This document shows, piece after piece, positions 53,290 through 53,700 of a stretch of 64,000 bases of DNA; the first letter of the stretch is position 1; every line of letters starts with the position of its first letter. Where the stretch lies: IMG/VR virus record IMGVR_UViG_3300024312_000003, positions 64,001 to 128,000 of that record; one strand, given 5' to 3'. Origin of the DNA: a virus. The notes below the pieces were generated by a model. The model saw only the letters and a list, made by a program, of their open reading frames with translations. It did not search any database and was not told the origin of the DNA. The position numbers were made by a program, and so were the translations under genes.

Positions 53290-53700
53290 ATCAAAGAATT
53301 TAACTGTCTTTTTCAAATCCATTACAGATTTGATACTCATCAATTAAATCGGCAGGAATATCAGATTCAATAGGTTCGGATCATTATCACCTACTTGTTA
53401 TTAAACCTGATAACTAGGTTTTGCTCAAGCGGCCAGGCGCTGAGCAAACGTGCTGTCGTTTGCGGCAGTTAAATTGAGATTTGTATGTTTCGATTGATTT
53501 CTCAATCTCTAACGGAGTTCTCATACTTACTCCGAGTAGTAATCTCCACTAGCTCACCCTGTCGAAACCAGATCTGGCCCACCTAAACAAACACAATATT
53601 GAATCTGCTTAGGTGGACCAGGTGGGAATCGAACCCACGTCCAGAATGCATTTGCTTTGATTTTCAGTTTCGGTATTTCTACCTCTACACACTACCATTT
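53290..53700 (-). ncRNA. ssrA: Circularly permuted (two-piece) tmRNA gene: acceptor piece about 53700-53612, spacer 53611-53581, coding piece 53580 to about 53290
   Basis: T-arm GTGGG-TTCGATT-CCCAC plus CTGGTCC-A-CC lies upstream of 5' end GGGCCAG-ATCTGGTTTCGAC; 7-bp acceptor with G3-U; PK1; tag reading frame. Confidence 0.93.
53425..53466 (-). other. tmRNA proteolysis-tag reading frame (A)AANDSTFAQRLAA*
   Basis: TA-ACT-GCC GCA AAC GAC AGC ACG TTT GCT CAG CGC CTG GCC GCT TGA; resume codon is GCC by the UA+3 rule (GCA is the alternative). Confidence 0.9.

Follow-up and report, generated by a model that had tools for sequence, protein, structure and literature searches.

The window analysed here comprises 64,000 nucleotides (positions 64,001 to 128,000) of the virus record IMGVR_UViG_3300024312_000003 and carries a circularly permuted, two-piece tmRNA gene. 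When the minus strand of positions 53244-53703 was scanned, ARAGORN called a permuted tmRNA at 53244-53696 with the tag AANDSTFAQRLAA. The Rfam model tmRNA_permuted (RF04321) aligned over its full length with 76.3 bits (E 7.6e-13), while beta_tmRNA (RF01850) matched with 91.4 bits (E 2.7e-26) over model positions 75-172 of 331 only. Both matches exceed the respective gathering scores of 47 and 84. Zero chance matches are expected for the tmRNA signature pattern, and the fold of the precursor stands out from shuffled sequences with z = -6.9. An initial annotation had read the locus as a permuted tmRNA gene and named ARAGORN and the Rfam tmRNA models as ways of checking this; on both counts the gene is real. 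In line with this, a script found every minus-strand motif listed in that annotation exactly where it had been read. No second, split or remnant tmRNA copy or fragment was found elsewhere in the phage genome, and Rfam gave no riboswitch match at the gene.

The two pieces follow the order of a permuted gene (Table 1). On the minus strand, the 3' half of the acceptor lies upstream and is followed by a 31-nt intervening segment and then by the 5' half. The acceptor piece contains the 3' strands of helix 2 (H2), a GNRA hairpin (53683-53672), the T-arm, the acceptor 3' strand, the discriminator A and CC. The ends of the spacer, together with ACC, pair 9/9 and so prolong the acceptor helix to give a hairpin of 19 bp; the spacer would be lost when the RNA matures. 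The coding piece comprises the acceptor 5' strand, an invariant D-loop analogue, the 5' strands of helix 2, PK1, the tag frame and a structured 3' domain, and its transcript probably extends as far as the terminator. Between the tag and the 3' domain, a long helix encloses a 5-bp stem (53393-53389 with 53375-53371) and a 13-nt apical loop; inside the 3' domain lie a 10-bp helix and a hairpin (53333-53326 with 53320-53313). The acceptor stem with its G3-U wobble, the T-arm, H2a, distal H2, the spacer with its paired ends and the terminator had all been proposed initially, and scripted checks confirmed each of them.

Table 1. Features of the tmRNA locus and its two flanking genes (window coordinates).
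Feature	Position	Strand	Evidence or remark
HNH endonuclease gene	53699..54232	-	PHROG HNH families E 4e-30, Pfam HNH_3; probable ATG 54196
Acceptor piece	53612..53696	-	ARAGORN, Rfam, 45-sequence covariation, compensatory changes in L179
Distal H2	53541-53535 with 53696-53690	-	Scripted pairing check; kept in L179
H2a	53561-53555 with 53648-53642	-	Scripted pairing check
T-arm	53638-53622	-	Scripted pairing check
Acceptor stem (7/7, G3·U70)	53580-53574 with 53621-53615	-	Scripted pairing check
Discriminator A; CC	53614; 53613-53612	-	Last A of CCA not encoded
Intervening segment, 31 nt	53611-53581	-	Pairing check, fold; relatives have a hairpin of differing sequence there
Coding piece	53272..53580	-	ARAGORN, Rfam, pairing check, L179 comparison
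PK1	53483..53534	-	Stem 1 53534-53529 with 53518-53513; stem 2 53526-53522 with 53487-53483
GNRA-capped (GAAA) hairpin inserted in PK1	53507-53492	-	Scripted pairing check
Tag reading frame	53466-53425	-	ARAGORN; resume codon GCC, 13 codons (AANDSTFAQRLAA), stop TGA
Long helix (53412-53401 with 53370-53359)	53359..53412	-	Two-sequence alifold, many compensatory changes
3' domain	53273..53358	-	7-bp closing helix 53358-53352 with 53279-53273; fold and L179 comparison
Intrinsic terminator	53269-53244	-	11-bp stem, GAAA loop, T-rich tail; kept in L179
ORF downstream of tmRNA	52760..53197	-	82% aa identity in L179, same order

A degenerate pattern built from the tag peptide recovered five further genes that a generic permuted-tmRNA pattern had missed. 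The tmRNA L179 lies on a 3.2-kb metagenome contig independent of the window record; it is syntenic and 77% identical over 433 nt (tag AANDSSFAQRLAA). L178, which is the same as L182, is found on the 205-kb IMG/VR contig G415 (IMGVR_UViG_3300027724_000004; tag ANDSQFAQRLAA), and L177 sits inside an 18-tRNA cluster on a 227-kb contig with 59% GC (tag ANDSEFAQRLAA). L180 (tag AANDTYFAQRLAA) and L181 (tag ANDDVFAVRLAA) are located on metagenome contigs. In all five relatives, a tag frame that starts with GCN and ends in ...LAA and a stop codon is conserved. The frame of the window gene differs from that of L179 at 1 of 42 nt, compared with a gene-wide divergence of 23%. The window gene, L179 and L177 also share an identical hexamer upstream of the resume codon, which favours resumption at GCC. 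Tags with an R before LAA occur in several large-phage tmRNAs and in none of the bacterial loci seen. Since the head protein of G415 is also of the phiKZ type, with 42% identity to that of the window phage, the tag family is common to at least two divergent phiKZ-like phages.

The family varies around the acceptor. The intervening segments of L180 (1736-2216), L177 (3770-4175) and L181 (4932-5350) measure about 100-170 nt, not 31, with about 170 nt in L180. In L178 (695-1033), the discriminator A follows the acceptor 3' strand and CC is not encoded, so that the entire CCA would need to be added post-transcriptionally. The D-loop analogue of the same gene deviates from the otherwise invariant motif.

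Covariation was assessed in an alignment of 45 related sequences, which covers the tRNA-like core and the spacer. In the tRNA-like helices, 98.1% of the cells are paired, a level reached by 0 of 500 shuffles; the shuffles gave 77% and slid controls about 50%. Double changes are present in 13 of the 19 pairs. H2a covaries across the set and the acceptor and T stems carry compensatory changes, while G3·U70 is invariant (45/45).

The helices of the mRNA domain are judged mainly from one close homologue, L179. Here, H2a, the T stem, the acceptor stem and the GNRA hairpin of the H2 region are retained by compensatory or wobble changes, and distal H2 by swapped G·U and G-C pairs. For distal H2, a different partner implied by Rfam (53683-53679) was rejected in favour of the initially proposed 53696-53690, because the latter is conserved and fully paired in L179, L178 and L177. 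PK1 with an inserted GAAA hairpin had likewise been proposed, and both of its stems are present. In L179, pairing of stem 1 is preserved by three double changes and that of the inserted hairpin by one double and one wobble change; stem 2 fits only if the register is moved by 2 nt, a shift made by eye. Further downstream, the hairpin at 53333-53313 keeps its pairing despite three changes, and G-C is replaced by A-U in the closing helix of the 3' domain. The two genes have the same 13-nt apical loop, and L178 and L180 have nearly the same.

The initial annotation had also placed further pseudoknots behind the tag. The letters that would form them are present, but in L179 both stems of PK2 and the second stem of PK4 are broken; as drawn, the two stems of PK4 would in addition share one base. 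We therefore rejected the four-pseudoknot architecture, with PK2 to PK4 as drawn, and find long covarying helices instead. Judging from its compensatory substitutions, the tmRNA is under selection as an RNA. Because the syntenic L179 retains H2, PK1 and the 3' helices through such changes, an assembly artefact and a dead gene are excluded. The worry that reassembly might undo the permuted order is thereby met, as the independent contig has the same order.

The window belongs to a 180,490-bp IMG/VR virus record with a CheckV completeness of 65%, a GC content of 38.5%, nine dispersed tRNA genes and the one tmRNA. Its major head protein (726 aa) is of the phiKZ type (phrog_3231, E 4e-182), and additional PHROG matches include a giant tail fibre/transglycosylase protein, internal head proteins, RNR and a helicase. 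The best cultured matches of the head protein, which has 220 matching records in INPHARED, are Burkholderia phage FLC9 (47% aa identity) and the Ralstonia phages RP12 and RP31 (42%). The label of jumbo phage given in the initial annotation is thus justified. A betaproteobacterial host is plausible, and the beta-type tRNA-like core is a weak hint in the same direction. No permuted tmRNA was found in the seven nearest cultured relatives (FLC9, RP12, RP31, FLC1-1B, LucasX, FLC6 and RSL2). A search with the head protein revealed no close relative in IMG/VR, and ten other large contigs with permuted tmRNAs gave no match to it.

The initial annotation had noted that smpB is missing from the window and that host SmpB would be used. 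The first part extends to the 180-kb, 65% complete record, in which SmpB (PF01668) gave no match, as it did in the incomplete relative G415; the second is presumed. A gene for a CCA-adding enzyme was not found in the 65% complete record either, and the tmRNA would therefore rely on the host for both.

Upstream of the tmRNA, the stop codon of the HNH endonuclease gene lies 2 nt ahead of the acceptor piece. No promoter-like site was found between the two and no separate tmRNA promoter was recognised. In L179 (1045-1518), an HNH gene abuts the tmRNA in the same way (63% aa identity). The HNH gene and the tmRNA could form a homing cassette that mobilises the tmRNA. The ORF on the other side of the tmRNA has no family match in PHROG and Pfam searches. 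Beyond the HNH gene, the window has about 3.5 kb (about 54300-57800) where the syntenic L179 has no more than about 570 nt. This insertion/deletion island, by which the related phages differ, contains small ORFs and the gene of a 466-aa AAA/STAND-like ATPase (54935-56335), and could serve in defence or counter-defence. Elsewhere in the window, three tandem paralogues of 1095-1223 aa are encoded on the minus strand at 33837-44564. They contain cadherin-like and Big_9 Ig domains, one of them also a NosD-type beta-helix, and are probably host-recognition fibres.

The generic permuted-tmRNA pattern retrieved 75 IMG/VR contigs and 75 bacterial loci, the latter from Rhodocyclaceae, Cupriavidus, Oligella and Alcaligenaceae, and ARAGORN called nearly all of them permuted. 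By Rfam typing, most low-GC viral loci are full-length beta_tmRNA, scoring up to 197 bits; marine loci are of the alpha type. The nearest BLAST matches of the window gene are viral: L011, L047, L017 and L056 are 84% identical over a 119-nt tRNA-like core that includes the spacer, and L055 is 83% identical. The best bacterial locus reaches about 75%, and the best extended match among 401 sampled Burkholderiales genomes 72%. The tRNA-like core and the spacer align with the two-piece genes of Rhodocyclaceae, Cupriavidus and Oligella. As homology in the 45-sequence alignment runs through the spacer, the gene has its permutation event in common with the beta type. In its mRNA domain, it resembles no bacterial tmRNA that was compared. 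An 89-column tree, too weakly resolved to give the order of clades, was used only for the starred pair of the window gene and L179 and for a separate Rhodocyclaceae clade.

Searches of other collections returned little. Against INPHARED, the tmRNA gave no blastn match and its flanks matched only tRNAs in megablast. A scan of metagenomes with the distal helix-2 sequence found nothing, and tblastx of the 75 viral loci against the phage genome revealed no shared neighbourhood except for RNR genes. Several Cupriavidus genomes (L097, L108, L114, L116, L121, L138 and L147) carry a beta-type permuted tmRNA with the tag ANDEKFALAA, in one strain at two loci, and this tag is also found on viral contigs with 36% GC (the L018 group). 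These Cupriavidus genes may be second copies borne on islands or prophages.

Taken together, we propose that the locus very probably encodes a functional two-piece tmRNA (ssrA) of betaproteobacterial descent, residing in an uncultured phiKZ-like jumbo phage. The tmRNA would be transcribed together with the upstream HNH gene or from a promoter within that gene. Host RNase P may then cleave at the 5' end of the coding piece, with the extended acceptor/spacer hairpin serving as a pre-tRNA-like substrate. The acceptor piece would be trimmed at its 3' end and receive its last A from the host CCA-adding enzyme, and the acceptor stem and helix 2 would hold the two pieces together. Once charged by host AlaRS, the RNA could be delivered by host SmpB to ribosomes stalled on broken mRNAs. 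Here, translation would resume at GCC and append (A)AANDSTFAQRLAA, whose LAA end is predicted to direct the tagged product to ClpXP-type proteases. The likely benefit for the phage is that free ribosomes are kept available after shutdown of host transcription or during mRNA cleavage.

Of the two origins that the initial annotation had left side by side, a phage capture and an independent permutation, the sequence comparisons favour the former: the tmRNA looks like an ancient capture from the betaproteobacterial type. The probability that the permuted order instead reflects an independent event in phages, an assembly artefact or bacterial contamination is vanishingly small. The divergence of the mRNA domain is the one observation in its favour, but the break point, the position of the spacer hairpin and the core are homologous to the beta type, the independent L179 and over 70 further viral contigs have the same order, and the genes on either side belong to a phage. 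Within the reach of sequence evidence, all three are already refuted. We also consider it very improbable that the tmRNA is kept mainly by way of the abutting HNH homing endonuclease, as its passenger or target-site cargo, with little benefit for the phage. Such a role would suit the 2-nt distance to the HNH stop codon and the like arrangement in L179. However, G415 and other loci of the tag family have the tmRNA without a homologue of the window HNH gene nearby, leftover tmRNA fragments were not found elsewhere in the genome, and the compensatory substitutions speak for selection on the RNA itself.

A further alternative concerns what the RNA does in the infected cell. As a decoy, it might compete with the tmRNA of the host for stalled ribosomes and for SmpB; or it might redirect tagging, so that proteins with the unusual ...FAQRLAA tag meet a different fate. 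A tmRNA of mycobacteriophage DS6A that lacks the CDS has been reported to inhibit host tmRNA (PMC11915505), and selective tagging of host proteins has been proposed (PMC9004378). The recurrence of tags with R before LAA in several large-phage tmRNAs, and in no bacterial locus seen, points the same way. Nevertheless, we regard this alternative as unlikely: the tag frame is complete, ends in the canonical LAA and a stop codon and is strongly constrained, every element needed for normal trans-translation is retained, and no inhibitor-specific sequence feature is present.

Within our preferred reading of a functional, phage-borne tmRNA, we offer one more specific scenario, which is possible but on balance doubtful. 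The '...FAQRLAA' tmRNAs may form a phage-resident lineage that goes back to an old betaproteobacterial capture and has been maintained in a subgroup of phiKZ-like phages. In this lineage the mRNA domain would have been rebuilt, with GNRA hairpins added to helix 2 and PK1, and with long helices and the conserved 13-nt loop taking the place of the downstream pseudoknots. One branch would travel with the HNH homing endonuclease, which spreads the tmRNA between phage genomes.

Two-piece tmRNAs in phages, jumbo phages included, are already published, and the window gene does not alter what is known of them or of the phages that bear them. The premise of the initial annotation that phage tmRNAs are one-piece is contradicted by PMC9004378 with its Table S1, where 53 of 133 unique phage tmRNAs are two-piece, and by the 75 contigs found here in IMG/VR, in which such genes are common. 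We found no literature description of a two-piece tmRNA in a phiKZ-like phage or of the divergent lineage of tag and 3' domain. The new points are modest: a divergent '...FAQRLAA' lineage is common to a second phiKZ-like phage, and the abutting HNH gene is also present in L179. The known range is extended to a phiKZ-like phage related to jumbo phages of Burkholderia and Ralstonia. In a wider sense, judging from the tmRNAs found in phages, large lytic phages seem to invest in clearing broken messages from host ribosomes. With its tag, its PK1 insertion and its pseudoknot-poor 3' domain, the window gene provides a divergent natural variant that can be compared with model tmRNAs.

A two-piece tmRNA has been reported in Melnitz, a phage of OM43, and pelagimyophages and T4-like cyanophages are among the published carriers (PMC9004378). 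Table S1 of that study lists permuted genes in Caulobacter phiCbK-like phages of 215-322 kb, in cyanophages of up to 233 kb (S-SSM7) and in Bordetella phage PHB04; the tmRNA database paper has 79 phage sequences. With these published genes, the window gene shares a permuted ssrA without smpB, a lytic and often large phage as carrier, and a presumed role in ribosome rescue during infection. In the published phylogeny, the Melnitz gene is of the alpha type and other marine phage tmRNAs group with the lineages of their hosts (PMC9004378). In contrast to the marine phage genes, which are alpha-type according to our Rfam typing of marine contigs, the window gene is beta-derived and its carrier phiKZ-like. 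Huge phages also carry tmRNAs, and some of their genomes encode SmpB as well (Al-Shayeb et al. 2020, PMC7162821); the form of the gene is not discussed there. The window phage has in common with these phages, and with the one-piece tmRNAs of mycobacteriophages, a phage-borne rescue RNA among many tRNA genes, but unlike the huge phages with SmpB it has no SmpB that we could find in its 180-kb record.

The IMG/VR beta-type contigs L011, L047 and L055 (tag ANDERYALAA) share the core, the spacer and an unusual acceptor stem sequence with the window gene. Their tmRNAs match the beta model over positions 1-331 with scores reaching 197 bits, and the genes beside them have no relationship to the window phage. 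The betaproteobacterial two-piece tmRNA itself (RF01850; Sharkady and Williams 2004, as cited in PMC9004378), as in the Rhodocyclaceae Dechloromonas/Azonexus and Thauera, agrees with the window gene in topology, tRNA-like core, G3·U70, intervening hairpin, the AND... start and LAA end of the tag, and a score above the RF01850 gathering threshold. The agreement ends outside positions 75-172, as the end-to-end architecture of RF01850 (5' leader, H2, PK1, tag and a single 3' pseudoknot hairpin) is not that of the window gene. Here, PK1 and helix 2 each bear an additional GNRA hairpin, the tag has 13 codons and ends in ...FAQRLAA where theirs has 10 (ANDERFALAA type), and the 3' domain has about twice the length of theirs. 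The carriers differ as well, with a phage of 38.5% GC on one side and bacteria of 60-65% GC on the other.
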